DNA of 64,000 nt from a virus: positions 1 through 64,000 of IMG/VR virus record IMGVR_UViG_3300049595_001870. One strand, written 5' to 3'. The notes under the pieces were generated by a model. That model saw only the letters and a list, made by a program, of their open reading frames with translations, made no database searches and had not been told where the DNA came from. Within the stretch, counting starts at the first letter, position 1, and every line of letters starts with the position of its first letter. Both the position numbers and the translations under genes were made by a program. Below are positions 865 through 64,000 of this stretch, in pieces.

Positions 865-1107
865 ATGCCATACCCAGACAGTGAGTACCCCAGCCTCCTG
901 CGGGGGAGAGACAAGAGAGAGAGCCAGAGGTTGCTGGCGGCGGCACCGGAGATGCTTGCGACGCTGAAGCGGATGCGTGAAGTGTTTGAGCAGTTGGCAG
1001 ACGGCGACTGGCGGATGCTGGACGCTACCTATGTGGATCAACTTATCGAAAGCGATGGACTGCACGGCTGCGATCAGGCCATCGCCAAAGCAGAAGGGAG
1101 GGAGTGA
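865..1107 (+). CDS. small early protein, AAAP(E/D)ML family; homologue of 59837-60076
   Basis: MPYPDSEYPS...RLLAAAPEML...AIAKAEG; SD AGGAG. Confidence 0.8.
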   Translation: MPYPDSEYPSLLRGRDKRESQRLLAAAPEMLATLKRMREVFEQLADGDWRMLDATYVDQLIESDGLHGCDQAIAKAEGRE

Positions 1108-1379
1108 TGAGTCATACGCCGGGGCCGTGGGGCATTCAGCCCGATGAGCGTGGCGGGCCGAGCGATACGGTCTATGCCTACGAAGATCAGCAGCAGCCTG
1201 TCGCTGAGATCGTATCCGGCGTTGTGGCCGACAGGTTCTTGGTGTCCGCAGCGCCGGATCTCCTGGCCGCCTTGATCCGGATGGACGAGGAGTTTGGCAC
1301 ACAGAACTACACCAAGTCTGCGGACGATGCGGTTATGATGGCCCAGGCTGCGATCAAGAAGGCATTTGGAGGTGAGTGA
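1107..1379 (+). CDS. small early protein, HTPGPW...AAPDLL family; homologue of 60076-60372
   Basis: MSHTPGPW...SAAPDLLAAL; coupled start after SD. Confidence 0.8.
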   Translation: MSHTPGPWGIQPDERGGPSDTVYAYEDQQQPVAEIVSGVVADRFLVSAAPDLLAALIRMDEEFGTQNYTKSADDAVMMAQAAIKKAFGGE

Positions 1380-1741
1380 TGCCACGCAAGAAACGTCTCG
1401 CGCTGCGACAGATAGTAGATGATGACACCCCGTGGGTGGAGTACCCACTGGATATCGCCCTGCAATGCGGCGTCCTCAAGAAGAACCCACGCAAAGGCGA
1501 GTTCATCTACGTGCCGGGCGAGGACAACCACACCATCTTGGAGGCCAGCCTGGAGAAGCTGGGATTCACACCCCGCTACACCCAGTATTGGGTGCCCAAG
1601 CTCAGTCGCTGGCTGAAGAGCGACCAGTGGCCCAATGCCTTGGAGTGGGCGGGTGGCTTGTGGCCGGAGGGATCGGCGTGGCGACGTTACCAGACAGAAC
1701 CCATGGAGGGAACCAATGGCAAGGAGCGATCATTGGACTGA
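1379..1741 (+). CDS. hypothetical early protein
   Basis: ORF after GGAGGTGAGTGATG junction. Confidence 0.65.
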   Translation: MPRKKRLALRQIVDDDTPWVEYPLDIALQCGVLKKNPRKGEFIYVPGEDNHTILEASLEKLGFTPRYTQYWVPKLSRWLKSDQWPNALEWAGGLWPEGSAWRRYQTEPMEGTNGKERSLD

Positions 1742-1853
1742 CGAGTTGGTAGACAAGGCCGTTCGCCTGCTTGTGCTGGCGGAGGCTGAACTGAAGCATG
1801 TGGCGCCGGACCTTTACCAGGAGATCCGGCGTTTTCTTTTGGAGGACGCATGA
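1716..1853 (+). CDS. 45-aa early protein; homologue of 60686-60823
   Basis: MARSDHWTD...PDLYQEIRRFLLEDA; SD GGAGG; same length as its homologue. Confidence 0.8.
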   Translation: MARSDHWTDELVDKAVRLLVLAEAELKHVAPDLYQEIRRFLLEDA

Positions 1854-2032
1854 TCACAGTGACGCTGACCCTCACGGAGCTTGCCTATCTGCGGGCTGCC
1901 GTGGAGCGGGACATGGAGGATGCCCGAGACATCGTCATGTTCGGGGAAGATGAGTACGCCCAGGCTGCGTATGCCTCGGCGGTGGATATACTGCGGAAGT
2001 TGCCGACTGAGGCAGAAGCAATACCGTTTTGA
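1850..2032 (+). CDS. small early protein; homologue of 60479-60676
   Basis: MITVTLTLTELAYLRAAVERD; ATGA overlap. Confidence 0.75.
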   Translation: MITVTLTLTELAYLRAAVERDMEDARDIVMFGEDEYAQAAYASAVDILRKLPTEAEAIPF

Positions 2033-2042
2033 GGAGGGAGTG

Positions 2043-2264
2043 ATGAGCGTTGAATCTGTGCGTGCCAACATCATGGATGCCGTCAATCGCATCAAGCTGG
2101 AAGGTTGCCTGCCCACCATGCGCAGTGCCCTTCTGGTGTGGCAGCAGTATCTAACCGAGACGCAGCCCAGCGGACTATCCGCGGCTGACAAGAAGGGCTA
2201 TGCCGACGAGCATAAGCGTGTGCAGTGGCTGTTGACCGAGGTGTTTCCAGAGGGAGGTGAGTGA
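2043..2264 (+). CDS. hypothetical early protein
   Basis: SD GGAGGGAG, ends in junction motif. Confidence 0.65.
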   Translation: MSVESVRANIMDAVNRIKLEGCLPTMRSALLVWQQYLTETQPSGLSAADKKGYADEHKRVQWLLTEVFPEGGE

Positions 2265-2482
2265 TGACCTTAAAGATCGGTGACTACCACATGCCTGACC
2301 CAGATGCGGTCGGGCAGTCCGAGTACCGTGCGTTGTACGATTTGCTGGAGTCCGTGGCAGACGGCGGAAGCGCAAGCACAAGCACTGTCGCTGATCATGG
2401 CGAGGCCGTTGCTGTGCTGGAAGAAGTGAAGAGTTGGTGTGATTCCTTGATCGACAAACTACTGCACGTTCACGGGAGGTGA
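2264..2482 (+). CDS. hypothetical early protein
   Basis: Flanked by junction motifs. Confidence 0.7.
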   Translation: MTLKIGDYHMPDPDAVGQSEYRALYDLLESVADGGSASTSTVADHGEAVAVLEEVKSWCDSLIDKLLHVHGR

Positions 2483-2485
2483 GTG

Positions 2486-2887
2486 ATGGCTAAGAAGAAG
2501 ACTGCGGCCAAGAAGACTGACGCTGCTGAGTACAGGTTCTTAGATGAGGTTCGCAAGAAAGTGCCACACCTGCTAGAGCAGGCGGCTTCCTTACTGCCGT
2601 TCGATGATGTGATCACGGAGCATTGGTGCGATGCAGACGAGGACTGCATCGGCATCGGGTTCGACCTGGACGGGCGGGTGTGCCCATCCGGCGTGTACTC
2701 TTTGTATGGCGCCCGCATCCATGCCGACCGGGTCATCATGTTTACCGACATGTACACACCCGAGAACGAGTGTGTCCGCGAGCAGTATGAGAGCGACATG
2801 CCCCGGCTGTGGGCGTTCCTTCGGCAGATCCCCAGGCCGATGCATTCTTTTGGCGTGTGGACTGCGTCCCTTAATGGAGGTGAGTGA
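2486..2887 (+). CDS. hypothetical early protein, MAKKK N-terminus
   Basis: Flanked by junction motifs. Confidence 0.7.
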   Translation: MAKKKTAAKKTDAAEYRFLDEVRKKVPHLLEQAASLLPFDDVITEHWCDADEDCIGIGFDLDGRVCPSGVYSLYGARIHADRVIMFTDMYTPENECVREQYESDMPRLWAFLRQIPRPMHSFGVWTASLNGGE

Positions 2888-3225
2888 TGGCTAAGAAGAA
2901 GCGACCCGAGGTTTGGGCCCCGCAGTTTGGCTGCTGGTCGGAGACTAGCAGTGTCGATCCGCACCCGGCCTGCGAGCTTTTGGGGCTGTTCCTGTCCGAC
3001 GCCAGTGCCATGCAGACGGTACGCATGTGTCATGCCCTGTACTACTCTGGCGATCAGGCGATTGACCCCAGCGAGGAGCGGCATGACAGCATCCGCTGGT
3101 TTGTGCGTGGCGCGGATGGTGAGAGGCAGGAGGTTTCACCGCCGTTCGCATGGGCGGAGGCACGCTGGGTTGTCCCCCTGGCTGGAGCTTGGGACAAGGC
3201 ACATGGATTAACAAAAGGGAGGTGA
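2887..3225 (+). CDS. hypothetical early protein, MAKKK N-terminus
   Basis: Flanked by junction motifs. Confidence 0.7.
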   Translation: MAKKKRPEVWAPQFGCWSETSSVDPHPACELLGLFLSDASAMQTVRMCHALYYSGDQAIDPSEERHDSIRWFVRGADGERQEVSPPFAWAEARWVVPLAGAWDKAHGLTKGR

Positions 3226-3228
3226 GCG

Positions 3229-3489
3229 ATGGACGGTTGGGTTAGCTTCTTCGACCGGCTGCCCGTGGCTGGTCAGACAATCTACTACTACGGGCCTGAC
3301 ATCGGCGTATGGCGTGGCACGTATGCATACGCCCCTGACGATCCGGTGTCTCACCACCTGATCCACTGCGGGGAATCGCCCGGCGTGGTAGATCGCATGG
3401 ATGCTCCGTGGTGGCAGCCGTTCGCCGGGCAGGACAAGCCAGCCGCGCCGACTGCGCCGTACCCTAGCGATTACCCTGGAGGTGAGTGA
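3229..3489 (+). CDS. hypothetical early protein
   Basis: Flanked by junction motifs. Confidence 0.7.
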   Translation: MDGWVSFFDRLPVAGQTIYYYGPDIGVWRGTYAYAPDDPVSHHLIHCGESPGVVDRMDAPWWQPFAGQDKPAAPTAPYPSDYPGGE

Positions 3490-3767
3490 TGAAAGCCGCC
3501 AAGATTTACCGCCGGTCCATCGCAGATTGCGGTGCGTCCCACCGATGCGCCGAGCTGACCTTACACTTCGGCGCCCCCTACGCACTGCATGATGTTTGGG
3601 GCACCCGATACGGCTGGGAGCATCGGCGTCTAGGCCCGTCCGATCTGCCGCTTGGATGCCTGAACCAACCCTGGATAGGCCCGGCCGTAGTCTGGTATCC
3701 GGCGGGCAACTGGATGCTACCGCCCGATGACACCCGAAGCCTGGAGAAGCAAGATGAAGAAGTCTGA
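3489..3767 (+). CDS. hypothetical early protein
   Basis: Starts in junction motif. Confidence 0.55.
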   Translation: MKAAKIYRRSIADCGASHRCAELTLHFGAPYALHDVWGTRYGWEHRRLGPSDLPLGCLNQPWIGPAVVWYPAGNWMLPPDDTRSLEKQDEEV

Positions 3768-4041
3768 ATTTGCCGTTGAGCTTCACGCCTGGGAGAAGAA
3801 GTATTTCGACCTTGTCTGGTATGCCCGCACCACGCCGGACAATCCGGTCAGCGCGGCGGGGCGCAAGCGGGTAGAGGCGGCATGGTCTGCCGACCTAGAA
3901 GAGCTGCGGTCTGATGACAGCAACTGGCAGCACGGCTTCAACAGCGGATGCCTTGCCGCATTCCGTTTGGTGCAGGGCCTGCTTGGCCGTGAGGCGGATG
4001 CAGAGTTTGCGAGGGAGCAGTTTCCTTTCTTGGATACGTGA
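3754..4041 (+). CDS. hypothetical early protein
   Basis: ORF with SD GGAG; NWQHGFNSGCLAAFR. Confidence 0.65.
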   Translation: MKKSEFAVELHAWEKKYFDLVWYARTTPDNPVSAAGRKRVEAAWSADLEELRSDDSNWQHGFNSGCLAAFRLVQGLLGREADAEFAREQFPFLDT

Positions 4042-4052
4042 GGAGGTGAGTG

Positions 4053-4286
4053 ATGGATGGCTGGATAACTTACGGCCCGAGGTGTGTGCGCCCATTTGAG
4101 TCGGCCGCTTTGTACTCCGAAGCTCGGCAACGTGTGCTGGCTTCCCCCAGGCTGGCGAAGTACATGGACATCCTTCTAGCGGAGGGATGGGCCGACGAGG
4201 ATCACCTGCGTTGGGTGATCCGCGGGAAGGTGAGTGAGATTGTGGCGTGGGCCGATCAGATCAGGAGGGATAGCGTTGATGGATGA
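4053..4286 (+). CDS. hypothetical early protein
   Basis: Starts in junction motif. Confidence 0.7.
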   Translation: MDGWITYGPRCVRPFESAALYSEARQRVLASPRLAKYMDILLAEGWADEDHLRWVIRGKVSEIVAWADQIRRDSVDG

Positions 4287-4641
4287 CCTTGATGTTGTGC
4301 AATGGTTCTTTGACCTGGACCGTGTCGGTTCTTGTTTCAACTGGCCGGTCAGTGTGCCGTCGCTGGTGACTGGCAAGCGTGCGATTGATGCTGCGATCAC
4401 CTCCAAGGCTTCGGCCGACGATGTGCTGGCTGCGTATCTCAAGCTCGCCAGTGCGGTTGGCCCCACGGTGATGACCTCGCTGCTGCAAAGCGACGATGCC
4501 TTCCCCGAGGTCAATCATTCCGGCAAGCCCACACCGCCAGCCGATGGCAAGGTGACGTTGTATGTCGATCCCCATGGCAAGCGGGTGGTGGCCGAGGTTG
4601 TGTTGACCTACGGTGTTCCATCCAAGTTCAGCGTTGCATAA
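4279..4641 (+). CDS. hypothetical early protein
   Basis: SD AGGAGG upstream. Confidence 0.65.
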   Translation: MDDLDVVQWFFDLDRVGSCFNWPVSVPSLVTGKRAIDAAITSKASADDVLAAYLKLASAVGPTVMTSLLQSDDAFPEVNHSGKPTPPADGKVTLYVDPHGKRVVAEVVLTYGVPSKFSVA

Positions 4642-4652
4642 GGAGATTCCCT

Positions 4653-4727
4653 ATGGGCACGGATGCCCCAGTGATTCTGGAGTTGGTGATCGTTGTGTTG
4701 CGTATCCTTGTGGAGATCATTCGATGA
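4653..4727 (+). CDS. 24-aa hydrophobic micropeptide MGTDAPVILELVIVVLRILVEIIR
   Basis: Hand-translated; SD TAAGGAG; below ORF-track size cutoff. Confidence 0.55.
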   Translation: MGTDAPVILELVIVVLRILVEIIR

Positions 4728-4798
4728 GCGAAGTTGCGGACTTCATGGTGGCAGTGGTGATCATTGGTGGCATGTTGTTCTGGTCCTCCTACAGGTGA
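4724..4798 (+). CDS. 24-aa hydrophobic micropeptide MSEVADFMVAVVIIGGMLFWSSYR
   Basis: ATGA overlap; positional and sequence homologue at 62914-62985. Confidence 0.7.
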   Translation: MSEVADFMVAVVIIGGMLFWSSYR

Positions 4799-4802
4799 AC
4801 CA

Positions 4803-5573
4803 ATGCTGTACGGTTACTGCCGGGTAAGCACGGACATGCAGGAAGCCTCATCCGAGGCACAGCAGGCGGCGCTGGAGGAGTACGCCAAGCGTACGAATCA
4901 GACGCTGGCCGAGATGTTTTCCGATGAGGATGTCAGCGGGTCCGTGCCCCTGCGTGACCGGCCGTCAGGCAAGCGGATGTGGGATCGGCTGCAACGGGGC
5001 GACACGGTGGTGGTCACCACCAGGGACCGCGGCTTCCGCTCCCTGGTCGATGCGGCCACCACGCTGATGCTCTGGCGGGAGCAGGGGATCAGGCTGCACA
5101 TCATTGACTTCCCCGTGGATCTCACCACGGACGAGGGGGAACTGGTGTTCCTCCAGGGTGCGGTGTTCTCCCAGTACGAACGGAAGATGATCGGGAGGCG
5201 GATCAAGCGCGGCATCGACCACCGAAAGAAGACGGGCCAGCCCTATGGCGGGACCAGACCGTGGGGCTGGATACGCACGGATCAGAAGTGGGTGCCGCTA
5301 CCCAAGGAGCGGGCTTCCGGCAACCGCATGCTCGTCATGCGCCGGGCTGGGTGTTCTTGGAACACTATCGCCGTCGCTTGTATGGATTGCCGGAAGCCCG
5401 AGGTGAGGAAGAACGGTTCCGGGTACTACCACGTTGCCGATGTTCGCACTCTTGTACGGGCGGCCGAAGCCGGATATCCAAAGATTGCGCCAGTTTTCTG
5501 GCGAGATCCCGGCTGCGGACAGAAGCTAGACGAACTGAAATCTGTTGCTCCTCTGCTATTTTCCGCAGAGTGA
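4803..5573 (+). CDS. serine recombinase (resolvase/invertase family), copy A
   Basis: YGYCRVST catalytic Ser motif, DEDVSG, GDTVVV..RDRGFR, F.QYER.MI. Confidence 0.9.
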   Translation: MLYGYCRVSTDMQEASSEAQQAALEEYAKRTNQTLAEMFSDEDVSGSVPLRDRPSGKRMWDRLQRGDTVVVTTRDRGFRSLVDAATTLMLWREQGIRLHIIDFPVDLTTDEGELVFLQGAVFSQYERKMIGRRIKRGIDHRKKTGQPYGGTRPWGWIRTDQKWVPLPKERASGNRMLVMRRAGCSWNTIAVACMDCRKPEVRKNGSGYYHVADVRTLVRAAEAGYPKIAPVFWRDPGCGQKLDELKSVAPLLFSAE

Positions 5574-5982
5574 GCGAGTCTTCAAACCGACTCTGCGCCA
5601 ACTCCCTGTCCTCCTCGGGCAGGTCTTCGATGGCCAGCCGCAGGTAGTCGGGATGCTCCGTGATCGGCAGCAGTTGCTCGGCCTCCATGAGCGAGAGCTT
5701 CCACTCGCACGGCTGCCGGGTAGCCCGCTTGATCCACTTGTACATGGCGTTCATTATCGCCCGTGCGAAGTAGGCTTTCGGATACGGGAGCCGGGACTGA
5801 TCGTATGTACGGGCGGCCTTGGTCAGGGCGAGGAATCCCTCGGACTGAAGGTCTGGGAACAGCACGCCACGCTGCCAGCTCGGGCGGGTCTGAACAAAAA
5901 ACTTGGCCAGCATTGAGGCCAATGGCATGTACTCAACGACGTAGTTTTGTCGTTTCTTGGAGAGCTTGGATCTTACTTGCAT
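5365..5982 (-). CDS. phage sigma-70 family RNA polymerase sigma factor (FliA/SigF-like size), copy A
   Basis: Region-2-like DLQSEGFLALTKAARTYD...YFARAIMNAM; region-4 HTH LTLRKIAEEQQISVRLASV. Confidence 0.8.
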   Translation of the reverse strand: MQVRSKLSKKRQNYVVEYMPLASMLAKFFVQTRPSWQRGVLFPDLQSEGFLALTKAARTYDQSRLPYPKAYFARAIMNAMYKWIKRATRQPCEWKLSLMEAEQLLPITEHPDYLRLAIEDLPEEDRELAQSRFEDSLTLRKIAEEQQISVRLASVRSRDLARKLAQSLDIRLRPPVQECEHRQRGSTRNRSSSPRASGNPYKRRR

Positions 5983-6157
5983 GTTCGTCTAGTCGATGTT
6001 CATGCTCGCGCAGAATGTCGCGCAGCTCATCGACAACTTCGGGCAGGCCCTGCACGGCGCTCGCAATCACAGCCACCTTGGCGTGGATGCTGAACGCCCA
6101 CGGGATGACCGCGCAAGCGCAGGTCAATATCACCATCCAGAACTCAAGCTCCATCAT
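5933..6157 (-). CDS. small membrane protein with coiled-coil tail (holin-like candidate)
   Basis: N-terminal hydrophobic helix FWMVILTCACAVIPWAF plus charged heptad tail. Confidence 0.55.
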   Translation of the reverse strand: MMELEFWMVILTCACAVIPWAFSIHAKVAVIASAVQGLPEVVDELRDILREHEHRLDEHASKIQALQETTKLRR

Positions 6158-6383
6158 CCGCCCTCCGGATCATGCTCACTAGCATCAGCCCTGCGTACGG
6201 ATGCAGGGATCCCTCTTCCACATGCAATTTCACCATGCGTCGGGCTCGGTCGGCTTCGTCGGGCGGGTACTGATAGACGTAAGTGTGGCCGTCGTAGCAG
6301 GCGATAGCTCGGTTAATGCGTCGTACGCCGCGCTTTGAACGTGCCTCAAATCCTTGCGATTTAAAATCCATTTCGTTATCCAC
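6144..6383 (-). CDS. hypothetical protein
   Basis: ORF in operon, overlaps neighbours. Confidence 0.55.
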   Translation of the reverse strand: MDNEMDFKSQGFEARSKRGVRRINRAIACYDGHTYVYQYPPDEADRARRMVKLHVEEGSLHPYAGLMLVSMIRRADDGA

Positions 6384-6604
6384 GCGCTGATTACCGAGAT
6401 GAGGATGGGCAGCACCAACACCAGGAACACCGAGCCGACTTCGGGGTGGCCCTGGACGAACGCCTGCCGCATCGCCTGCCGCCGCTTCCGACCCGCCAGT
6501 GGGGCGAAGACCAGCCCGAGCAGGGCGATCTCCTCTGAATGCTGGCTCATGCCACGGGCACCAGTGTCCCGCAGGCAGTCGAAGACTATTTGGTCGGTGG
6601 GCAT
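6230..6604 (-). CDS. membrane protein
   Basis: TM segment VFLVLVLPILISVISAWITKWIL; start uncertain (6604 or 6550). Confidence 0.6.
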   Translation of the reverse strand: MPTDQIVFDCLRDTGARGMSQHSEEIALLGLVFAPLAGRKRRQAMRQAFVQGHPEVGSVFLVLVLPILISVISAWITKWILNRKDLRHVQSAAYDALTELSPATTATLTSISTRPTKPTEPDAW

Positions 6605-6861
6605 TTCCCGTCTGGGCAGTTCTGATAGATGACCACGGGCGGGTGCTTCACGGCCTTGCACTCGCAGTCCGGCGGGCAGGGGCAGGGGGTCTTGTGCCCG
6701 TCGCCGTGAACGATGAACCCACCCTTGCATTCGCCGCAGCATTTCTTGGCGGGGGTGTCGGTCTGCTGCGTGTGGATCACGTACGACGCATGGACTGCGA
6801 CCGGGCCCGTCATGTCCGGGGCTGCGAAGAGAGAGGCAATGAGGGCCAGCAGTTCAGCCAT
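6586..6861 (-). CDS. secreted Cys-rich small protein
   Basis: Signal-like N-terminus; CCGECKGG...CPCPPDCEC. Confidence 0.65.
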   Translation of the reverse strand: MAELLALIASLFAAPDMTGPVAVHASYVIHTQQTDTPAKKCCGECKGGFIVHGDGHKTPCPCPPDCECKAVKHPPVVIYQNCPDGKCPPTK

Positions 6862-7804
6862 GACGCAGGAGTCCTACGGTTCCGTAATCGGGCAGCTTCT
6901 GTGGAGGGAAACCATCGACTGATCCATATGCGTAGCAGTCACCGCCGCGCACGCACACCTCCCAGTCCTCTGCCTTCGTCACAATCATGCCGGGCAGATA
7001 CTTGGGGTAGTCGCTTGGCCATTCCTTTGGCGCTTGACACCACGGGCCCCAGCTATTTGCGATGAAGAACACATCGAAAGGCCAGAACTTACGGGTGAAG
7101 TCCATGCCGACCGTAGCCATCGCGTGACTCCATCCGCCACCAGTGCGCGGGTGAATGTGATCCTTGTTCGGAGTTGGCGACCACGCCGCAAACTGCCCAG
7201 ACGCCACGCAGTACCCGTTGAAGAGCGCGTCCACTACGTCTTGGATGCGCGTGAGCTGGCGGATGATGCCTACTTTGTTCTGCCGACACAGTGCCTTGAC
7301 ATCCTCGGGCACGCCCCGCCCACCCCAGTTTGTGCCGATGGTGGACTTGTACACCGAAAGATCGACGGGGTCATATTTCTTACGGATCAGGAAGCCCACC
7401 TCATTCTCAAACATGGCGGCGCGGGCAGGAGACATACCCTCGCCAGCATGCCCACGCGCACCGTAGGTAGGCTCAGTCGCCCCGCGCACAATGAAATCTT
7501 CGGGCCGTCGCTCCACGCAAATCTGGGTCGCACGGCTTGTGTCTCGCGCGTTCCGCGAACAGTGGCTCGTACAATCTCCAGTGGTCTGGCGCTCGGTAAA
7601 CGACAGCGGGTCTAACGCCTGCGTGTACTGCCATAGAAGTGCCCGCTGCCCCTGGCCGCTGCCAGCAATATTGGGCTCCGAATACACGGGCTGCTTCTGC
7701 GACTCCGAGAACAAGCCGCGATCTCGCGGGCTATCGATGTAGCCCGTGAGCCCATCCTCATAGGCCATGAGCAACTGCATCGGATTGTCAAAGTCGTCAG
7801 GCAC
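6854..7804 (-). CDS. papain-like cysteine peptidase (C1 family)
   Basis: Q-TTGDC (Gln/Cys), GGWSHAM (His), IANSWG (Asn): full catalytic set. Confidence 0.8.
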   Translation of the reverse strand: MPDDFDNPMQLLMAYEDGLTGYIDSPRDRGLFSESQKQPVYSEPNIAGSGQGQRALLWQYTQALDPLSFTERQTTGDCTSHCSRNARDTSRATQICVERRPEDFIVRGATEPTYGARGHAGEGMSPARAAMFENEVGFLIRKKYDPVDLSVYKSTIGTNWGGRGVPEDVKALCRQNKVGIIRQLTRIQDVVDALFNGYCVASGQFAAWSPTPNKDHIHPRTGGGWSHAMATVGMDFTRKFWPFDVFFIANSWGPWCQAPKEWPSDYPKYLPGMIVTKAEDWEVCVRGGDCYAYGSVDGFPPQKLPDYGTVGLLRHG

Positions 7805-54648: not shown

Positions 54649-54653
54649 CGGGA

Positions 54654-55501: not shown

Positions 55502-55502
55502 C

Positions 55503-55724: not shown

Positions 55725-55725
55725 C

Positions 55726-55950: not shown

Positions 55951-55951
55951 C

Positions 55952-56221: not shown

Positions 56222-56222
56222 C

Positions 56223-57088: not shown

Positions 57089-57285
57089 GACATGTGGAAT
57101 TCCGCAAGTTGGTGGACGCTGTCATCGAAGCCCACTGCGGGCTGGGGTCCATGGATCTGCCCGACTTCGATCTGTGGAGCTACTTCGACGAGGACATGAC
57201 ATCCGAAGAGGCGCAGGAGGCGGCGCGTGATGCCGCCATCGACCTGCTGGTGGAAGAGGGCTTTCCGTTTGAGGAGGGTGCGTGA
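57085..57285 (+). CDS. acidic small early protein
   Basis: GTGA overlap. Confidence 0.7.
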   Translation: MRHVEFRKLVDAVIEAHCGLGSMDLPDFDLWSYFDEDMTSEEAQEAARDAAIDLLVEEGFPFEEGA

Positions 57286-57509
57286 TGCAGAAGTGGGTGG
57301 CCCATGCGATTGCGTCTCACGGCCCGTCTCTGGACGAGCGATGGGTTGGTGATGTGACTGCCGGCGTGGCGGGCGATCTGCCGGCGTTCATTGCGGCAGC
57401 GGCGACGGCGGCGCGTGAGTTGGCCGACGAGCAGTTGGCCGAAGAGTTCTTGGATGCCTTGGCGGCAGTCAATATCGACCGTGTGTTGGGGAAGACCGTC
57501 TTCTACTAG
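57285..57509 (+). CDS. hypothetical early protein
   Basis: Coupled. Confidence 0.6.
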   Translation: MQKWVAHAIASHGPSLDERWVGDVTAGVAGDLPAFIAAAATAARELADEQLAEEFLDALAAVNIDRVLGKTVFY

Positions 57510-57519
57510 GGGGTGCGTG

Positions 57520-57732
57520 ATGAGCTATCGACCGATGGTGAAGGTGGGCAATGAGTGGGCTGGCAATGGCATTCGCTTTGCCACCCGGGCAGAGGCCGAG
57601 GCTTCCGCCCGTGATCTGTACGGACGATGGACCCTGTGTGTGGATCACCGGGCAGATGAGTCCGATGATCAGGTAAACTGTGAGTGGGATTCGTCCCGTG
57701 GCAATGTGCATTTGGAGGTGGTCAATGCCTGA
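57520..57732 (+). CDS. conserved early protein (NGIRFATRAEAE)
   Basis: SD GGGGGTG. Confidence 0.7.
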   Translation: MSYRPMVKVGNEWAGNGIRFATRAEAEASARDLYGRWTLCVDHRADESDDQVNCEWDSSRGNVHLEVVNA

Positions 57733-57988
57733 GATTCCAAACATCCCGCAGTCCGTGCGGATATACGTGGCTCCTGTCGGCACAGTGGACTCCCCTGTTC
57801 ATGGCTGCATTCCGTTCGTCGTTCGGGCCTACGACAACACCCGCACTGGCGAGGTGATGTGGCGGGGCAGCTACTACCAGAACGTCAATGGCTTCCCAAT
57901 GTACGTCGCCGCTAGGCAGGCGGCCGAGCGTGAATGCGGCGTGCGTAACTGGCACATCGTCAACCCAGAGGAGGTGAGCAGTGCCTAG
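57725..57988 (+). CDS. hypothetical early protein
   Basis: GGAGGTGGTCAATG junction. Confidence 0.65.
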   Translation: MPEIPNIPQSVRIYVAPVGTVDSPVHGCIPFVVRAYDNTRTGEVMWRGSYYQNVNGFPMYVAARQAAERECGVRNWHIVNPEEVSSA

Positions 57989-58283
57989 GCACAGACGTTC
58001 TCGCACCGACTACCCGGCTGGCGTGATTGCCATCTATGACAACTGCGGCAAGACCATCGACCGATACGAGGTGGTGTTCTCGCCTGCGTCCAGTGATGGG
58101 GTGCAGTTCTTTCCCATCCTGTACATGAGCCCCGATCCGTTCCATCCGCAGGGCGTGGGGCAGCATTCCGAAACGCTGTTCCGCCCGACGCGGATGCCCG
58201 ATCAGCGCGTGATTGATTGGGCCGATCTCCCTGAACGATGCAAGCAGTGTGTTCTGCAAGACTTGGAGGTGACCAATGCCTAA
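57981..58283 (+). CDS. conserved early protein (YDN.GKT.DRY...PFHPQGVGQH)
   Basis: Recurrent phage motif. Confidence 0.75.
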   Translation: MPRHRRSRTDYPAGVIAIYDNCGKTIDRYEVVFSPASSDGVQFFPILYMSPDPFHPQGVGQHSETLFRPTRMPDQRVIDWADLPERCKQCVLQDLEVTNA

Positions 58284-58491
58284 ACAGCGGCGGCGGTATG
58301 CCGTGATCGGCTGGTGTGCCGTCGATGTCCTGGAGCATAGGCCGGGCTGGACCCGCAAGCAGTGCAACGAGTTTCTGGAGGCCAACGAGGATCACGTCCA
58401 GTTGGCGATGATTGAGGCTGGCAATGCGGCGATCAGGGAGTGCCTGCCGCCGGGGAACGATGAGGACACAGAGGAGGTGGTCAATGCCTAA
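58276..58491 (+). CDS. hypothetical early protein
   Basis: GGAGGTGACCAATG junction. Confidence 0.7.
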   Translation: MPKQRRRYAVIGWCAVDVLEHRPGWTRKQCNEFLEANEDHVQLAMIEAGNAAIRECLPPGNDEDTEEVVNA

Positions 58492-58735
58492 CCCAAACGT
58501 CAGTCAGAGCCACTTCGCCAAGGCTGCTGCCGGCAAGGCGGCGACGTTTTGCGAAGAGGCCAAGAGCGAGGCAAGCCTAGCCGTTATTGCCCGCATGGTA
58601 CTGGAGGAGTTCGACACGGCCCCCAAGTCGCAGGAGTACCTAGCCCTCGCGGCTGCGTTCAGCAAGTCGCATGGCAAGAACGAATGGGTGATAGTGGACG
58701 ACATTGTCCGTGCGTTCAAATGGTTTCGGAGGTGA
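58484..58735 (+). CDS. hypothetical early protein
   Basis: GGAGGTGGTCAATG junction. Confidence 0.65.
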   Translation: MPNPNVSQSHFAKAAAGKAATFCEEAKSEASLAVIARMVLEEFDTAPKSQEYLALAAAFSKSHGKNEWVIVDDIVRAFKWFRR

Positions 58736-58739
58736 CGAC

Positions 58740-59030
58740 ATGACATCCGGTGACCTCGCCAAGATGGCCCGTGCCGCAGCCGTCATTGAGTCTGTGCTGG
58801 GCCGGGACTTTGTGTGCTACACCCGGTCAGAGTTCGATGGTGAGTACGGCAAGGGTGCCTTGCTCATCCTGCAACATGAGAGCTGCGATCCGCTGTACCC
58901 GTATGTGAACTACGACGGTTTGCAATACGGCAAGATCGAACAGTTGTCCGATGCGTTGTCGGCTGCTGGGTTCTGGGTGGAGGACTGCACGGGGTGGTAC
59001 TCCGGTGTCTATGAGAAGGAGGTGGCGTAA
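58740..59030 (+). CDS. hypothetical early protein
   Basis: SD GGAGGTG. Confidence 0.7.
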   Translation: MTSGDLAKMARAAAVIESVLGRDFVCYTRSEFDGEYGKGALLILQHESCDPLYPYVNYDGLQYGKIEQLSDALSAAGFWVEDCTGWYSGVYEKEVA

Positions 59031-59269
59031 TGCGAGTGCGATATGCGGCTGGCGAAATTGTTGATGTGGACTCCGGCGTGTTCACTGCCTCGCCCATTCG
59101 CGGCGAGGGCTGGGTGCGATGCGAGGTGGTGTGCGACACCGACAACGTGGATCAGACGTACATCAGCCCCCTCCCGCCGCACCTTGGCTCGCCCCTATAC
59201 GTGCGACCACGGGACATCCGTGGGCCCTCGCTACTTACCAACAAGGAGAACGCCAATGCCGCAGATTGA
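59030..59269 (+). CDS. hypothetical early protein
   Basis: TAATG coupling. Confidence 0.65.
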   Translation: MRVRYAAGEIVDVDSGVFTASPIRGEGWVRCEVVCDTDNVDQTYISPLPPHLGSPLYVRPRDIRGPSLLTNKENANAAD

Positions 59270-59453
59270 TTGGACTGCTGACCAAGGCGAAGAGGTTCGG
59301 CAGTTGCTTCTGAATCAAATTGATTTCCTGCAAGAGAGAAAGGCAACGTGGGTTTCTCGCGGTGCCCTCGGCCCAGCAGCAAGCGACTCGCACCTCATCC
59401 AAGACTTGCGTGACATAATTTCTAAACTGGAGGCTGCATATGCCAACGATTGA
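59256..59453 (+). CDS. small helical early protein
   Basis: MPQIDWTADQGEEVRQLL; SD AAGGAG. Confidence 0.65.
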   Translation: MPQIDWTADQGEEVRQLLLNQIDFLQERKATWVSRGALGPAASDSHLIQDLRDIISKLEAAYAND

Positions 59454-59619
59454 ACTGACCGACGAGCAGGCCGAGGAGTTGCAGGATGTGCTGGTGTACG
59501 AGTCTGACCGCCTGACGTTTGCCATCAAGGACGCTGACCCCAGCGATGCAGACGCTATTGCTACGCGGCACACTGTGTCTGTCCTGTCCGACATCCTTCA
59601 CCTACTGGAGATTGCGTGA
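59440..59619 (+). CDS. small helical early protein
   Basis: Hand-translated MPTIELTDEQAEELQDVL... Confidence 0.65.
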   Translation: MPTIELTDEQAEELQDVLVYESDRLTFAIKDADPSDADAIATRHTVSVLSDILHLLEIA

Positions 59620-59837
59620 TGAAGCCACTGCATATCACTGAGCATGAGGCACGCCAGGAACTGCTAGCCTACGTGGACATCGATGATCTGGCCCTGCTTC
59701 TCAGCAAGCTGGCCGTGTATCAGGACCGCACCGTGGTTGTGAAGGGCACCGACAAGGAGAGTTACGCCTGCTGGAATGGGTACATGAGCGACGAGCGTGG
59801 TGATCTGAACTGCTTCAGCGACAAGGAGACTGCCTAA
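59619..59837 (+). CDS. hypothetical early protein
   Basis: Coupled. Confidence 0.65.
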   Translation: MKPLHITEHEARQELLAYVDIDDLALLLSKLAVYQDRTVVVKGTDKESYACWNGYMSDERGDLNCFSDKETA

Positions 59838-60076
59838 TGCCATACCCAGACAGTGAGTACCCGTCCATCCTGCGTGGACGCACCAAGCGTGAGAGCCAGC
59901 GGTTGCTGGCGGCGGCACCGGACATGCTGGCTGCGCTGAAGATGTGGATGGAGCTAGAGACAACGTGCGATGGGCGCCGACCGTGCTATTGCGACGACCC
60001 AGAGATATCGCGGCACGGCAAATGCTATGCGTGCGCTGCCGATTCCGCCATCGCCAAAGCAGAAGGGAGAAAGTGA
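59837..60076 (+). CDS. homologue of 865-1107
   Basis: First 26 nt identical to 865-890. Confidence 0.8.
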   Translation: MPYPDSEYPSILRGRTKRESQRLLAAAPDMLAALKMWMELETTCDGRRPCYCDDPEISRHGKCYACAADSAIAKAEGRK

Positions 60077-60372
60077 TGGCACATACACCGGGAACGTGGG
60101 AGGCAAGGCCGACTGACGGGCAGATCGTTCTCAATGGATCGAACTGCTATGACATTCAGGAAATCTACAACGATCAGGGCGGGTTCAATCCTGACGACAT
60201 CCGGCTCATGGCGGCGGCGCCTGAGATGCTGGCTGCGTTGCGTGACACGCTCGGCGAACTGGAGTGGCTGTGCGAATGCCACCGCAAGTGCAAGGAAGAG
60301 CCGGATGCTGGTGCGTATGCTGCTATCGCCAAGGCCCGCACGGCCATACTCAAAGCGGAAGGGAGGGATTGA
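60076..60372 (+). CDS. homologue of 1107-1379
   Basis: MAHTPGTW...MAAAPEMLAAL. Confidence 0.8.
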   Translation: MAHTPGTWEARPTDGQIVLNGSNCYDIQEIYNDQGGFNPDDIRLMAAAPEMLAALRDTLGELEWLCECHRKCKEEPDAGAYAAIAKARTAILKAEGRD

Positions 60373-60473
60373 TGGGCCGCAGGGCCAGCGTATCGGCCAA
60401 GCCGAGGCGGAACATGCGGACGCTGCTTCTACGGTGGGGCGGCTGGGAGTGGTTTCTGAAACACATCAAGTGA
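60372..60473 (+). CDS. 33-aa basic peptide
   Basis: TGATG coupling. Confidence 0.45.
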   Translation: MGRRASVSAKPRRNMRTLLLRWGGWEWFLKHIK

Positions 60474-60478
60474 GCGAC

Positions 60479-60676
60479 ATGATCAACCTGACTTTGAGTC
60501 CGACGCACTTCTTCTACCTGCTGGCCGCCGTCCGCCGGGACGCGGCCGAGCTGGAGGACATGGCACCATGGGATATCAGTGAGGAAACCGAGGCACATGA
60601 GCAGGAGATGAAGTTGTGCCGGGAGGTTGGTAGGCTCCTGTCCAAGGTGGAGCAGGAGCAGGTGTTCACGCACTAG
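60479..60676 (+). CDS. homologue of 1850-2032
   Basis: MINLTLSPTHFFYLLAAVRRD. Confidence 0.7.
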   Translation: MINLTLSPTHFFYLLAAVRRDAAELEDMAPWDISEETEAHEQEMKLCREVGRLLSKVEQEQVFTH

Positions 60677-60685
60677 GAGGTGTGC

Positions 60686-60823
60686 ATGGGACGCATCGAC
60701 TGGTGGACTGACGGGCGGGTAGACTACGTCATCAGCCTGCTTGTGCAGGCCGAGCGTGTGGTGCGAGAGGTTGAGCCTGATCTGTACGAGAAGATCCGGC
60801 GTTTTCTTTTGGAGGAGGCGTGA
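60686..60823 (+). CDS. homologue of 1716-1853
   Basis: Hand-translated MGRIDWWTD...PDLYEKIRRFLLEEA. Confidence 0.8.
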   Translation: MGRIDWWTDGRVDYVISLLVQAERVVREVEPDLYEKIRRFLLEEA

Positions 60824-61302
60824 TGAACAAGTATCGCGTGCAAGACTCGCACTGCGGCGAGGACTTTGAGGCTGCCGACGAGGACGCCGCCTTCGCATAC
60901 GCCAAGGAGTGGCTGCGAACCGGCGACTGGGATCGGTCTCACACTCTCTGGCCGGACGCCACCGTCTTTGCGTACGACGGCGACACAGAGGAGCGGCTGG
61001 GTTCAGTGACGGTCACCCTCCCGCCCGATGAGCCGGCATGCGTTGGCGAGGAGCATGTGTGGTGTTCACCGCATCACATCCTCGGCGGCCTGGAGGATAA
61101 CCCGGGCGTGTGGGGTAACGGCGGAGGCGCTCGCATCAAGGAAGTGTGCAGCGAGTGCGGCGTGTACAAGTTGGTCGATACGTGGGCCACCAACCCCACT
61201 AACGGTACGCAGGGGCACACTTCCGTGGAGTACCTGCCGCCTGACAACGCGTCCTTAGAGTGGGTAAGGCAACTGCAAACAGAGGAGGTGCGTGATGGCT
61301 AA
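60823..61302 (+). CDS. hypothetical early protein with Cys/His motifs
   Basis: EHVWCSPH...CSECG. Confidence 0.7.
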   Translation: MNKYRVQDSHCGEDFEAADEDAAFAYAKEWLRTGDWDRSHTLWPDATVFAYDGDTEERLGSVTVTLPPDEPACVGEEHVWCSPHHILGGLEDNPGVWGNGGGARIKEVCSECGVYKLVDTWATNPTNGTQGHTSVEYLPPDNASLEWVRQLQTEEVRDG

Positions 61303-61771
61303 GAAGAAGGCTGCGAAGAAGCCCCGGCCGCAGAGCGTGACGCTCCGGTTCATTTCCGATCCCGGCCATGGGTGGCTGGAGGTGCCGAAGGCTCTGTGCG
61401 AGATGCTTGGTCTGGGCACAGACTTCCCCGCCCATGGGCCCTTCTGCTACTTGGAGGAAGACTGTGATTGTACCGACTTCGACCGGGCGGCGAAGCGGCA
61501 CGGCGTGTCGTTCGTAACGGCCGAGCATGAGGTGGATAGCTTCGATCACTGGTTCGGTGGTGAGCAGTGGCCGTACATCCCCGGCGCCGTCTATGGGGAT
61601 GACAGAAAGCTTGTGTGCCACGCTTTGGAATCCCTCGGTACGCAGATGAAGCAGTGTCACTTGGATGAGACGTACAGTGCCAAAGAACGCAAGGAGTTCC
61701 GAAAGATGTGGGAGGATTGCGTGCGGCTAACACTGAAGTTTGAAACCCTGAACGGTGTGGGAGGTGAGTGA
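61295..61771 (+). CDS. conserved early protein (DPGHGWL...YLEEDCD), MAKKK N-terminus
   Basis: Recurrent phage motif. Confidence 0.75.
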   Translation: MAKKKAAKKPRPQSVTLRFISDPGHGWLEVPKALCEMLGLGTDFPAHGPFCYLEEDCDCTDFDRAAKRHGVSFVTAEHEVDSFDHWFGGEQWPYIPGAVYGDDRKLVCHALESLGTQMKQCHLDETYSAKERKEFRKMWEDCVRLTLKFETLNGVGGE

Positions 61772-62067
61772 TGACTAATGACACCGTCACGGATTGGCGG
61801 CATGCAATTCGATTTCGCATCGACGGCCAGCAGTTTCACTATGACGGCCAAGGAGAATTCCGTGCGCTGCATGCCACCGTGTTCCAGTACGCCAGCGATG
61901 GCAAACGATACTGGAAGGTCGAAGTGCTAGAGGAGAGTTCGGATCGCAGCCGGGCCGAGGCTTACACGTATGGCGACACTCTGCCGCTCACGCACAAGAT
62001 GGCGACAGAGATCGCGCGTAGGTTTGTGACCGGGAAGAAGATACCCAAACGATTGGAGTGGAGGTGA
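61771..62067 (+). CDS. hypothetical early protein
   Basis: Flanked by GGAGGTGAGTGATG. Confidence 0.7.
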   Translation: MTNDTVTDWRHAIRFRIDGQQFHYDGQGEFRALHATVFQYASDGKRYWKVEVLEESSDRSRAEAYTYGDTLPLTHKMATEIARRFVTGKKIPKRLEWR

Positions 62068-62070
62068 GTG

Positions 62071-62292
62071 ATGCTGACGGGCGACAAGAAGCGGGCTCGG
62101 CTTGGCAAGGCGGCATGCCGCCGATATGCCGATGACGTTGGTGCGGACATGGATGAGGATCAGGGCGTGATCATGCAGGATTTGGTGGTCAGCATCCTGC
62201 ATCTGTGCGATCAGGAAGGCATGGACCCGTTTACGTTCTCGCAGAAGGCGCTGCGGAAGTTTGAGGAAACCCTAGTGGAGGAGGATTACTGA
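62071..62292 (+). CDS. hypothetical early protein
   Basis: QDLVVSILHLCD..G.D pattern. Confidence 0.7.
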   Translation: MLTGDKKRARLGKAACRRYADDVGADMDEDQGVIMQDLVVSILHLCDQEGMDPFTFSQKALRKFEETLVEEDY

Positions 62293-62501
62293 TGGCGTTC
62301 GGCAAGCACCGGAAGATTTGCTTTGACTATGAGCCCGGCCACAACTACCCGTACGTTTGCTCTGCGTGGTGCGAGGTGGGTGGCATGAACATCGGTGATC
62401 GTTTCACCGAGGAGGTTGCCGAGGTCCTCATTGAGGCGTTCCGTGAGAATGGGATTGCGGTGGAGGTGGAAGAGGTTGCTAACAATCAGGGGAGACTATG
62501 A
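62292..62501 (+). CDS. hypothetical early protein
   Basis: TGATG coupling. Confidence 0.65.
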   Translation: MAFGKHRKICFDYEPGHNYPYVCSAWCEVGGMNIGDRFTEEVAEVLIEAFRENGIAVEVEEVANNQGRL

Positions 62502-62884
62502 CTGACATCGAAGTGCTGGAGGATTTCTTTATTGTTGACGAGGTCGCCGCAGCGCTGGAGTGGGTGATTGCGCCAACACTCTTGGGCCGGTCGGCGCGTG
62601 AGTTGCGGGCTCTGGCGTCCAACCCGGACGCAAGCCCAGAGGATGTGGTCAAAGCGATCGAACTCGTCCTCACTGCCGTCGGCCCACGCAACATGGCGGC
62701 CATTGTGTCGCATGGCGTGTGGGATCATTGGTGCCCGTGCCATGTCGATCTTGATCAGTTCAACAACGGCCACGGCGCTGTGATCTGGACCGGCAACAAT
62801 GGATATGTGAAGTGCGTGATTGATGACACTGACGAAGACAATCTGGACCTTACGCTGATTGCCGGGAACGTCCCGGCGAAGTGA
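62498..62884 (+). CDS. hypothetical early protein
   Basis: ATGA overlap. Confidence 0.7.
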   Translation: MTDIEVLEDFFIVDEVAAALEWVIAPTLLGRSARELRALASNPDASPEDVVKAIELVLTAVGPRNMAAIVSHGVWDHWCPCHVDLDQFNNGHGAVIWTGNNGYVKCVIDDTDEDNLDLTLIAGNVPAK

Positions 62885-62913
62885 ACGGCAACCTTGTTTG
62901 TGAGGGGGATTCT

Positions 62914-62985
62914 ATGGGCGAGACTTTTGAGTTCCTGATGTGCTGCATTGTTGTTGCCACAATCCTGTACTGGAGCGGCCAGTGA
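62914..62985 (+). CDS. 23-aa hydrophobic micropeptide MGETFEFLMCCIVVATILYWSGQ
   Basis: SD GAGGGGG; GTGA overlap with recombinase; homologue of 4724-4798. Confidence 0.7.
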   Translation: MGETFEFLMCCIVVATILYWSGQ

Positions 62986-63761
62986 TCTACGGATATGTGC
63001 GAGTCTCCACCGACAAGCAGGAGTGTTCCGCCGAGGCGCAGCAGGCGGACATCTTGCGGTGGGCCAAGGACGGCTGCGACCGCATGTTCGTTGACGAAGA
63101 TGTGTCCGGCGGCATGCCACTGCAAGACCGGCCGCAGGGCAAGGTCATGTGGGACTTGCTCACGCCGGGTGACACCGTCGTCGTCGCCAAGCTGGACCGT
63201 GCGTTCCGCAATCTCTCCGATGCCGCCAACACACACCAGAACTTCAAGGCGCAACGGATTGCCCTTGTTGTTCTGGATTTGCCGATCGACATCAACACGC
63301 CGGCCGGCGAGCTGTTCTTCCACCAGCTCTGTGCGTTCGCTCAGTTTGAGCGGCGCATGATCGCTGATCGCACGCGGCGGGCGTGCCAGCACAAGCTCTC
63401 CACGGGCAAGCCGTACGGCCGGGCGCGTCCGCTCGGCTGGGTTCGCCGGGAGGGACAGTACGTGCCCTGCGAGGAGGAGCGAGAGACTGGCCGCCGACTG
63501 CTGGCCATGCGCAAGGCCGGGCTATCCTACGTTTCCATCTGCTGGAAGTTTGCCCGCGAGCGCGTGCGCAAGCCCGATCCGGTCAAGGGGAGCCGGGGCT
63601 ACTACGGCCCGGACGATCTGCGGATGCTGGCCCAGGCAGCCGAAGCTGGATACCCAGCCGTTCCGAGAGCGTACGTGCCAGCGCTCGCGCGCGAACAGAT
63701 GCTACTCGCAGAGACACCTCATGCTCCGCGGCGATTTGACGTAGCGTCATTCCCTCAATGA
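62982..63761 (+). CDS. serine recombinase, copy B
   Basis: IYGYVRVST, DEDVSG, GDTVVVAKLDRAFR, FAQFERRMI. Confidence 0.9.
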   Translation: MIYGYVRVSTDKQECSAEAQQADILRWAKDGCDRMFVDEDVSGGMPLQDRPQGKVMWDLLTPGDTVVVAKLDRAFRNLSDAANTHQNFKAQRIALVVLDLPIDINTPAGELFFHQLCAFAQFERRMIADRTRRACQHKLSTGKPYGRARPLGWVRREGQYVPCEEERETGRRLLAMRKAGLSYVSICWKFARERVRKPDPVKGSRGYYGPDDLRMLAQAAEAGYPAVPRAYVPALAREQMLLAETPHAPRRFDVASFPQ

Positions 63762-64000
63762 ATCGGGATGCCGCTATCGGCGCGTCGTCGCCGAGGTCTT
63801 CGATGGCAAGACGCAGGAAGTCGGGGTCTTCCGCCATGCAGACCACCTGATCGGCCTCTGCCAGACTGATCTTCCAGAACCCTGGCTGGCGGGTCAGCTT
63901 CTTGATCGACCGGCACATTGCGTTCAAAACCGCGCGTGCAAAGTACGCCTTGGGATACGGCAACCGCTTGGGATCGTACGTGCGGGCGGCTTTGACGATG
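63583..64000 (-). CDS. sigma-70 family factor, copy B (5' end beyond window)
   Basis: KAARTYDPKRLPYPKAYFARAVLNAM...MTLRQIA, homologous to 5365-5982. Confidence 0.8.
   Translation of the reverse strand, partial: IVKAARTYDPKRLPYPKAYFARAVLNAMCRSIKKLTRQPGFWKISLAEADQVVCMAEDPDFLRLAIEDLGDDAPIAASRFIEGMTLRQIAAEHEVSLRVASVRARALARTLSERLGIQLRLPGPASADRPGRSSPGSP

Follow-up and report, generated by a model that had tools for sequence, protein, structure and literature searches.

A 118-kb IMG/VR record probably threads two related lake phages into one contig through an identical early-gene block

Introduction

Tailed phages are known for modular mosaicism, which arises through homologous or illegitimate recombination. 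When such mosaic genomes occur together in one sample, they share unitigs, and assemblers cannot resolve the paths that run through these shared edges (Phables; PMC10104058). Over-length, concatenated contigs in IMG/VR have been considered probable assembly artefacts, and chimeras of related viruses have been described as well (CheckV; PMC8116208).

Here, we analyse IMGVR_UViG_3300049595_001870, a record with a total length of 117,778 bp, the first 64 kb of which form the window, i.e. the whole stretch of DNA (64,000 nt) that was subjected to analysis. The record resembles the over-length contigs described with CheckV in that it stems from the same database, is about twice as long as its relatives, carries its core genes doubled in order and shows no host flanks (PMC8116208).

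Two collinear phage units in one record

The whole record is composed of two collinear phage units of ~59 kb, A followed by B (Table 1). The genes for the portal, the large terminase subunit (TerL), the capsid, the sigma factor, both recombinases, ERF and the S8 protease are each present twice, and their order is kept. Divergence between the units runs along their whole length, including the structural genes, with 30–88% identity at the amino acid level and a nucleotide similarity of ~0.25–0.30. The tyrosine recombinase of unit B, for instance, is encoded at record positions 76544–77356 and is 60% identical to the A copy. At the nucleotide level, positions 1–6000 and 58626–64625 of the record have 45 exact 16-mers in common, as compared to none in 20 shuffles.

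These results agree with the original prediction of two related units with a period of ~59 kb, since all four coordinate pairs that it listed repeat at a spacing of ~58.2–59.0 kb. The pair at 865 and 59837 is 84% identical and contains an exact run of 26 nt from 865 (offset 58972), while the stretches around 1822 and 60792 are 73–75% identical with an exact run of 25 nt (offset 58970). The stop codons of the sigma-like genes are located at 5365 and 63583 as claimed, and the two genes are 56% identical at the amino acid level. Homology of the recombinase pair at 4803 and 62982 holds as well, albeit with an identity (49% over 243 aa) slightly above the claimed 40–45%. The second terL and major capsid gene sought downstream also exist, as further copies of the portal, TerL and capsid genes were found beyond the window.

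Table 1. Features of the window, with their counterparts elsewhere in the record where applicable.
Feature	Position	Strand	Remarks
Unit A, specific part	1..54645		Collinear with record 58.9–113.8 kb; 87–96% aa identity to the stand-alone 60.6-kb relative G001
C5 DNA methyltransferase, cut by record start	2..778	+	phrog_363, profile positions 107–234 of 327 only
Early-gene stretch of A	865..969	+	B counterpart 59837–59941
Early-gene stretch of A	1716..1854	+	B counterpart 60686–60824
Small serine recombinase (resolvase/invertase type), unit A	4764..5573	+	Pfam Resolvase, 1.3e-32
Sigma-70-like factor, unit A	5365..5982	-	Pfam Sigma70_r2 and r4
Tyrosine recombinase (integrase family), unit A	19557..20462	+	Pfam Phage_integrase, phrog_1
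Portal, unit A	37980..39971	-	Pfam P22_portal; second copy at record 93674–95656, 79.7% aa identity
Large terminase subunit, unit A	40316..42004	-	Pfam Terminase_6N; second copy at record 95990–97621, 76% aa identity
Major capsid protein, unit A	46692..47804	-	phrog_9953; second copy at record 103868–104974, 89% aa identity
Diverged left flank, 410 bp	54646..55054	+	94.6% to record 113801–114207; leader and first 100 codons of first early gene
First early gene, GP88 family	54752..55501	+	Pfam PF17338, 3.1e-31; spans the transition between diverged and identical sequence; alleles 99.6% identical
Exactly shared early-gene block, 3,571 bp	55055..58625	+	0 differences vs record 114208–117778
83-aa ORF	58484..58735	+	Uninterrupted at the block's right border (58625|58626)
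Unit B, specific part, start	58626..64000		Runs on to record 113800; the repeated copy of the shared block comes next
Serine recombinase, unit B	62940..63761	+	Homologue of the A copy
Sigma-like factor, unit B	63583..64000, to about 64161	-	5′ part past the window end

Unit B closes on itself, because positions 55055–117778 alone represent unit B with identical ends; the resulting circle measures 59,153 bp, equal to the offset of the exact repeat. Unit A, in turn, is a nearly complete genome of ~59–60 kb, with an estimated ~1.1 kb absent before position 1 as judged by synteny with its relatives. At this end of the record, a methyltransferase gene is truncated: the first ~41 aa of the protein including motif I are absent, and the full-length homologue in the relative G008 (L107:6687-7379) begins 122 nt upstream of the equivalent of position 1. 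Unit A as a simple circle of positions 1–58625 was rejected, since joining 58625 to position 1 leaves the methyltransferase unrestored.

Terminal redundancy, which the original prediction had already dismissed, was likewise rejected: the units are non-identical, and the repeat is absent from the left end of the record and hence not found at both ends. Moreover, the 127+ bp at the left end of the record repeat nowhere and the repeat at the right end pairs with an internal site, which is not the arrangement of a direct terminal repeat.

Relatives are single-unit genomes

Among the best 80 IMG/VR relatives, none is longer than 63 kb and none is of double length. The five near-full-length relatives that were checked (59.4–63.0 kb) all have a CheckV completeness rating of 100%, and the five relatives examined whole (59.5–61.9 kb) possess one copy of each core gene. 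Three relatives, G003, G004 and G008, close via exact overlaps of 127 bp into circles of 60.05, 60.90 and 61.74 kb, and a k=127 graph is expected to leave overlaps of this length. For most core proteins of unit A, identity to the stand-alone G001 (60.6 kb) amounts to 87–96% at the amino acid level, versus 36–90% to unit B.

These relatives speak to the idea that the record is a single genuine phage genome of ~118 kb that arose by whole-genome duplication and subsequent divergence. Such an origin would suit two units that both appear intact and collinear, but it is at odds with A being much nearer to the single-unit 60.6-kb G001 than to B, which led us to reject in-situ duplication. Since the complete relatives are all single-unit as well and the exact block at the contig end would be left unexplained, we regard this origin as hardly credible.

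Searches beyond these relatives returned few matches. In scans from which near-identical records may have been withheld, the opening 40 bases of the record have relatives of only 87–90% identity, namely in the viral contigs G008 and G009 and in one metagenome contig (L109). When the packaging module and the shared block were searched with blastn, none of 50,697 phage records matched. Among cultured phages, protein comparison matched the portal only to a Microcystis phage (26%) and TerL only to Arthrobacter phages (25%), with no match for the capsid protein.

A shared early-gene block contains the switch from A to B

Positions 54646–58625 are repeated at 113801–117778, i.e. at the very end of the record, with 99.45% identity. 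The alignment of 55055–58625 with its second copy reaches the last base of the record and contains no difference, although this exact identity is that of the assembled sequence, in which the assembler may have collapsed isolated SNPs. The copies show 22 differences in total, every one of them within 54655–55054, where neighbouring differences are at most 66 nt apart. Inside the first early gene, seven of the eight flank differences occupy third codon positions, and a divergence of ~2.6% over the first 300 bp gives way to no difference at all in 3,571 bp. Judged from the two copies, this change from 2.6% to zero is a sharp breakpoint rather than drift.

Both borders of the block are natural. 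On the right, the independent records G006 and G007 are identical over 58499–58629 and diverge from 58630 onwards; on the left, the A-like G001 contains sequence like that at 53.0–53.6 kb, followed by the first early gene. The left border coincides with a gene boundary (stop codon at 54646), and the right border is located within a small ORF. Because both borders are natural adjacencies in single-unit records, the switch from A to B must be inside the identical block, with A-specific sequence ending at 54645 (55054 according to the SNPs) and B-specific sequence beginning at 58626. The join had originally been placed at 53.1–54.4 kb, which comes close but is wrong, as the switch is inside 55055–58625. 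In a k-mer scan of viral contigs, with the same limit as to near-identical records, the junction between A-specific sequence and block (around 54624–54667) had no matches, and a k-mer scan with a 38-mer from inside the shared block had none either. As a side observation, an independent sample shows the same right-hand breakpoint to within 5 bp.

The location of the switch is also informative with regard to tandem prophages in a host chromosome or plasmid whose host flanks were trimmed off. That each unit encodes an integrase-family tyrosine recombinase as well as a small serine recombinase would be in keeping with such an arrangement. However, the sole A/B transition is ~35 kb away from the tyrosine recombinase (19557–20462) and, going round the unit, ~5–9 kb away from the serine recombinase gene, and the units have no exact repeat in common other than the 3.6-kb gene block, with no short att core found. 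Furthermore, both record ends are phage early genes that are internal in circular relatives, there is neither host DNA nor a tRNA, and a scan of genome contigs, which returned six MAG contigs of inconsistent taxonomy (none > 55 kb) and no isolate genomes, gave no sign of an integrated copy and yielded nothing usable on host or att sites. Tandem prophages are therefore very improbable, and this reading is already largely refuted.

An assembly chimera as the best explanation

Considering the sequence as a whole, we think it probable, and with good confidence, that the 118-kb record represents two co-occurring lake phages that were threaded into one contig by a metagenome assembler; a head-to-tail pair of this kind probably does not exist as a natural molecule. 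The record is about twice as long as its relatives, its core genes are doubled in order and the join is situated in an exact repeat that ends the contig. Out of the three readings initially offered, an assembly chimera thus fits best, tandem prophages lack support and a heterologous concatemer is left as the less-favoured rival. The chimera had been pictured as a crossing between two alleles of the early region on one 59-kb genome, but we rejected such an early-region bubble, given that A and B have different structural genes as well, meaning that two whole genomes are concerned. A concatemer of the same genome, which is the class with high k-mer frequency in CheckV, was rejected given the A/B nucleotide similarity of 0.25–0.30.

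According to this assembly model, two distinct but related phages belonging to an uncultivated lake-water lineage would have been present in one sample, each with a circular assembly of ~59–60 kb and both likely employing headful packaging. The identical stretch of ~3.6 kb, with which the early operon begins, would be common to both phages, probably following a recent homologous exchange of the module. In a de Bruijn graph, such a pair would appear as two loops with one shared edge and, owing to the spacing of ≤66 nt between neighbouring flank differences, the A and B paths would merge exactly at 55055 if k is 127. The assembler may then have followed A into the shared edge, gone round B and entered the shared edge again, stopping at the end of this edge. 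We infer that such threading of a short-read graph, rather than a physical molecule, made the join; if long reads > 3.6 kb were the source of the record, the join could have read support. One point against the chimera is that a perfect figure-eight walk would begin directly after the shared block, yet ~1.1 kb of A are absent there, so that an extra graph break must be assumed.

The main rival is a physical heterodimer, i.e. a single crossover between A and B in the shared block, mediated for example by phage ERF/exonuclease during co-infection and resulting in a ~119-kb cointegrate or a mixed concatemer. Both units encode a recombination toolkit, comprising ERF, an exonuclease VIII-like nuclease, a RusA-like resolvase and endonuclease VII, and the block offers 3.6 kb of perfect homology; a circular heterodimer generated by one such crossover would also give the same short-read graph as two separate circles, making the two indistinguishable there. 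Nevertheless, none of the best 80 relatives has the double length, the molecule would be too large for a headful capsid of ~60 kb and the exact A portal occurs on 34 contigs as opposed to 6 for the exact B portal. Intermediates of this kind are expected to be rare beside the parental forms, and there is no positive evidence of A–B linkage. We hence deem a physical heterodimer unlikely, and quite unlikely that the 118-kb sequence is a real heterodimeric cointegrate, possibly one that persists as an episome until an encoded recombinase resolves it.

Implications and comparison with known systems

The main value of an assembly chimera such as the one proposed here is one of data hygiene: an IMG/VR record that is rated 100% complete and linear nonetheless contains two genomes. 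The usual check of k-mer frequency would miss this record because only ~3% of its sequence is repeated. If left as it is, the record would mislead genome-size statistics, clustering, host prediction and searches for large phages. It should be split into A (1–58625, short by ~1.1 kb) and B (58626–117778, the 59,153-bp circle).

Beyond curation, the record presents an identical immediate-early module in phages that are otherwise as different as separate genera. The identity of the module argues for a very recent exchange, and therefore for a shared host.

How does this arrangement relate to described systems? Compared with terminal redundancy or direct terminal repeats, the left copy of the repeat is internal and preceded by 55 kb of another phage. 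While the over-length contigs described with CheckV repeat the same genome and reach a k-mer frequency of ≥2, here the phages are different and only 3.6–4.0 kb are repeated; the record would instead represent a ‘chimera of closely related viruses’, a category that the discussion of that study names as not yet detected (PMC8116208). As in the graphs described with Phables, a whole module would form the common edge and the remaining genome is distinct, but Phables variants mostly exceed 95% ANI, whereas A and B have little similarity beyond the shared module (PMC10104058).

The closest parallel on the biological side is phage mosaicism, with which the record shares an abrupt transition from low or no identity to ~100% and a left border at a gene boundary. 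It differs from the usual cases in that the exchanged module forms the very start of the early operon and that the right border falls inside a small ORF. The exchange of the module is ordinary phage mosaicism, cleanly illustrated here in an uncultivated freshwater lineage.

Two related phages in one record

The 64-kb window opens an IMG/VR virus record of 117,778 bp, classed as linear and rated 100% complete by CheckV. Compared with itself, the record resolves into two collinear units, A and then B, between which patches with 65-81% nucleotide identity recur at offsets from 55.0 to 59.0 kb; tblastn returns gene-by-gene matches of 30-88% amino acid identity over nearly the whole length. Portal, large terminase (TerL), major capsid protein and sigma factor are each present twice in the whole record, as are the serine and tyrosine recombinases, the ERF recombinase, the S8 protease and a 1,246-aa protein. 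The original observation that related units stand head-to-tail is borne out by self-comparison of the whole record, and the second terL and major capsid protein gene for which a check was proposed do lie downstream. The repeats read from the window also hold: 865-969 matches 59837-59941 at 84% (26-nt exact run from 865) and 1716-1854 matches 60686-60824 at 73-75% (25-nt exact run at 1822/60792), with offsets of 58,972 and 58,970, exactly as claimed. Record positions 1-6000 and 58626-64625 have 45 exact 16-mers in common, compared with 0 in 20 shuffles. The genes taken for recurring recombinases encode small serine recombinases (ORFs 4764-5573 and 62940-63761; 49% identity over 243 aa; Pfam Resolvase match, 1.3e-32), and the convergent ORFs ending at the presumed sigma stop codons, 5365 and 63583, are indeed sigma-70-like and 56% identical.

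Overall nucleotide similarity between A and B is only 0.25-0.30, meaning that these are two different phages; two alleles of one early region are thereby ruled out. The circle of unit B closes at 59,153 bp.

Genome organisation and lineage

The lineage is uncultivated, and no cultured relative comes nearer in portal or TerL than ~25% amino acid identity. Lakes (Lake Lanier, Lac Pavin) are the source of related contigs, and genome G+C is about 61%.

Layout of the record and features of its units
Feature	Position	Orientation	Content or source
A-specific part	1-54645		record self-comparison
Diverged flank, first copy	54646-55054		record self-comparison
Shared block, first copy	55055-58625		record self-comparison
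B-specific part	58626-113800		record self-comparison
Diverged flank, second copy	113801-114207		record self-comparison
Shared block, second copy	114208-117778, then end of record		record self-comparison
Early operon		rightward	many small genes
Long block		leftward	sigma factor, nucleases, helicase, recombination genes
Tyrosine recombinase		rightward	
Structural and packaging genes			part of unit layout
Divergent control region	~54.1-54.7 kb		
Recombination/nuclease toolkit of A	7797-8642, 10806-11231, 12208-12708, 17812-19298, 42010-42636		
583-aa virion protein gene	34716-36467		

Among relatives, the early region shows strong mosaicism. Many of its small genes are separated, in both units (1367-4077 and 61284-62073), by the near-invariant junction GGAGGTGAGTGATG, in which Shine-Dalgarno sequence, stop and start are fused and which could provide micro-homology through which cassettes are shuffled. 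Within the control region (54132-54402), a ~31-nt unit occurs twice (54132 and 54346; 87% identical), each copy being followed by a GTGAGT-type microsatellite run (54165-54208 and 54383-54402). Further repeats are a 48-54-nt unit in three tandem copies (36318-36473; 76-80% identical) inside the virion protein gene and, in unit B, short dispersed or tandem sets (record 71364-71811, 82389-82645 and 92230-92670), with repeats of 86 bp (88% identity), 86 bp and 153 bp at spacings of 362, 171 and 288 bp, respectively.

The recombination toolkit is unusually rich, with an ERF annealing protein, an exonuclease VIII-like nuclease, a RusA-like resolvase and three endonuclease VII/HNH-type proteins, and the unit bearing it also encodes a tyrosine and a serine recombinase. 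The subtilase (9047-9991; Peptidase_S8, 8.5e-49) is conserved across A, B and all five relatives fetched whole (68-90% amino acid identity). No counterpart of the 567-aa DEAD/ResIII helicase of A (15636-17339) is detectable at the matching position in B, where non-homologous genes seem to have replaced it, and the scanned proteins included no recognisable endolysin.

The switch lies within an identical early block

Positions 54646-58625 match 113801-117778 at 99.45% identity in an alignment that reaches the last base of the record; this long repeat cannot be seen from the 64-kb window alone. All 22 differences between the copies fall in 54655-55054, whereas 55055-58625 has none over 3,571 bp, an exact identity that could in part come from collapsed SNP bubbles. 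In the diverged 410 bp, 14 differences lie in the leader and eight in the first early gene, which encodes a GP88-family protein; seven of these eight are at third codon positions, and the differences look natural. The largest gap between neighbouring differences is 66 nt. With ~2.6% divergence giving way to none in 3.6 kb, the breakpoint is sharp, and the record cleanly illustrates the recent exchange of an early module.

The block has a natural adjacency at each of its borders. On the left, G001, a stand-alone single-unit record most of whose core proteins share 87-96% amino acid identity with those of A, carries 53.0-53.6 kb-like sequence followed by the leader and first early gene, spaced as in our record. 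That G001 is far closer to A than B is also contradicts a duplication followed by divergence in place. On the right, two independent records from other samples, G006 and G007, run uninterrupted across 58625|58626, match our record base for base over 58499-58629 and depart from unit B from 58630 onwards, and an 83-aa ORF (58484-58735) spans the border intact. The A-to-B switch must therefore be inside the identical block (55055-58625), not at 53.1-54.4 kb as originally proposed. The breakpoint in another sample shows that 58626-58630 is a mosaic boundary in the population, and hence a spot where an assembly graph would branch.

Tandem prophages, integrated side by side as had been suggested, do not fit this position: the sole A/B transition is separated from the tyrosine recombinase gene by ~35 kb and from the serine recombinase gene by several kb, with neither a short att-like repeat nor a tRNA. 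Both record ends are phage genes that are internal in circular relatives, and a scan of genome contigs returned MAG contigs only, none longer than 55 kb, with no isolate genomes and inconsistent taxonomy. Contigs of this lineage (L129-L134) have been placed in MAGs labelled Rubrivivax, Pirellulaceae, Chitinophagales, Alphaproteobacteria and Planctomycetota, probably by mis-binning. A single MAG, JAGYIQ01, includes two different portal-bearing contigs, and related phages of this group therefore occur together in one sample.

Relatives are single units

Searching IMG/VR with the portal confirmed 261 related stretches, and none of the best 80 contigs is longer than 63 kb. Five near-full-length contigs checked measure 59.4-63.0 kb and are all rated 100% complete; the five relatives fetched whole (59.5-61.9 kb) each carry exactly one copy of every core gene. 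Three relatives (G003, G004 and G008) self-close into circles of 60.05, 61.74 and 60.90 kb through exact 127-bp overlaps, a signature left by circular paths through a k=127 de Bruijn graph. In G001 (60,622 bp), the last 127 bp recur at 508-634 instead of 1-127, making it a closed circle with a 507-bp extra tail, a small assembly oddity. The encoded Terminase_6N-type TerL and P22-like portal would be in keeping with headful packaging of roughly one genome length. Exact protein matches on record comprise 34 contigs for the A portal, 42 for the A capsid protein and only six for the B portal, an imbalance that is not what obligatory linkage would predict.

A probable assembly artefact

The head-to-tail pair is most likely not a natural feature. 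The original interpretation is supported in part: of its readings the assembly chimera fits best, but early-region alleles of one genome and the proposed join do not hold. The simplest account is a walk through a graph of two loops, A and B, with the block as their one common edge: the path would run from A through the block, all round B and through the block again, stopping at its end. As there is no identical 127-nt stretch in the flank, the point at which the paths of A and B would merge at k=127 is exactly 55055. Short-insert read pairs cannot bridge a 3.6-kb exact repeat, so the A-to-B join would rest on no direct evidence; were the record assembled from long reads, however, the join might be read-supported. 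The same short-read graph would result from a real heterodimer, a cointegrate or mixed concatemer produced by a single crossover within the block. Genes for ERF, an exonuclease VIII-like nuclease, a RusA-like resolvase and endonuclease VII are present in A and in B, yet we consider such a heterodimer unlikely.

The graph walk is imperfect at the start of the record. Position 1 falls within a C5 DNA methyltransferase gene, and the match of the remaining fragment to phrog_363 begins only at profile position 107; the full-length gene of G008 (L107:6687-7379) begins 122 nt upstream, with motif I there. Joining 58625 to position 1 does not restore the gene. In G001, G008, G009 and a metagenome contig (L109), sequence like the 59.4-59.6 kb region of B precedes the methyltransferase. 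By synteny, ~1.1 kb of A is missing between the block and position 1; with this piece added, A would measure about 59.7 kb. The figure-eight is to that extent incomplete, and a further graph break must be assumed.

The outcome of practical use is a correction of the record. The CheckV paper reports contigs in IMG/VR that exceed twice their expected length and are probably assembly artefacts, and it names chimeras of closely related viruses as a type still undetected (PMC8116208), and the Phables preprint describes unitigs common to mosaic phage genomes that assemblers are unable to resolve (PMC10104058).
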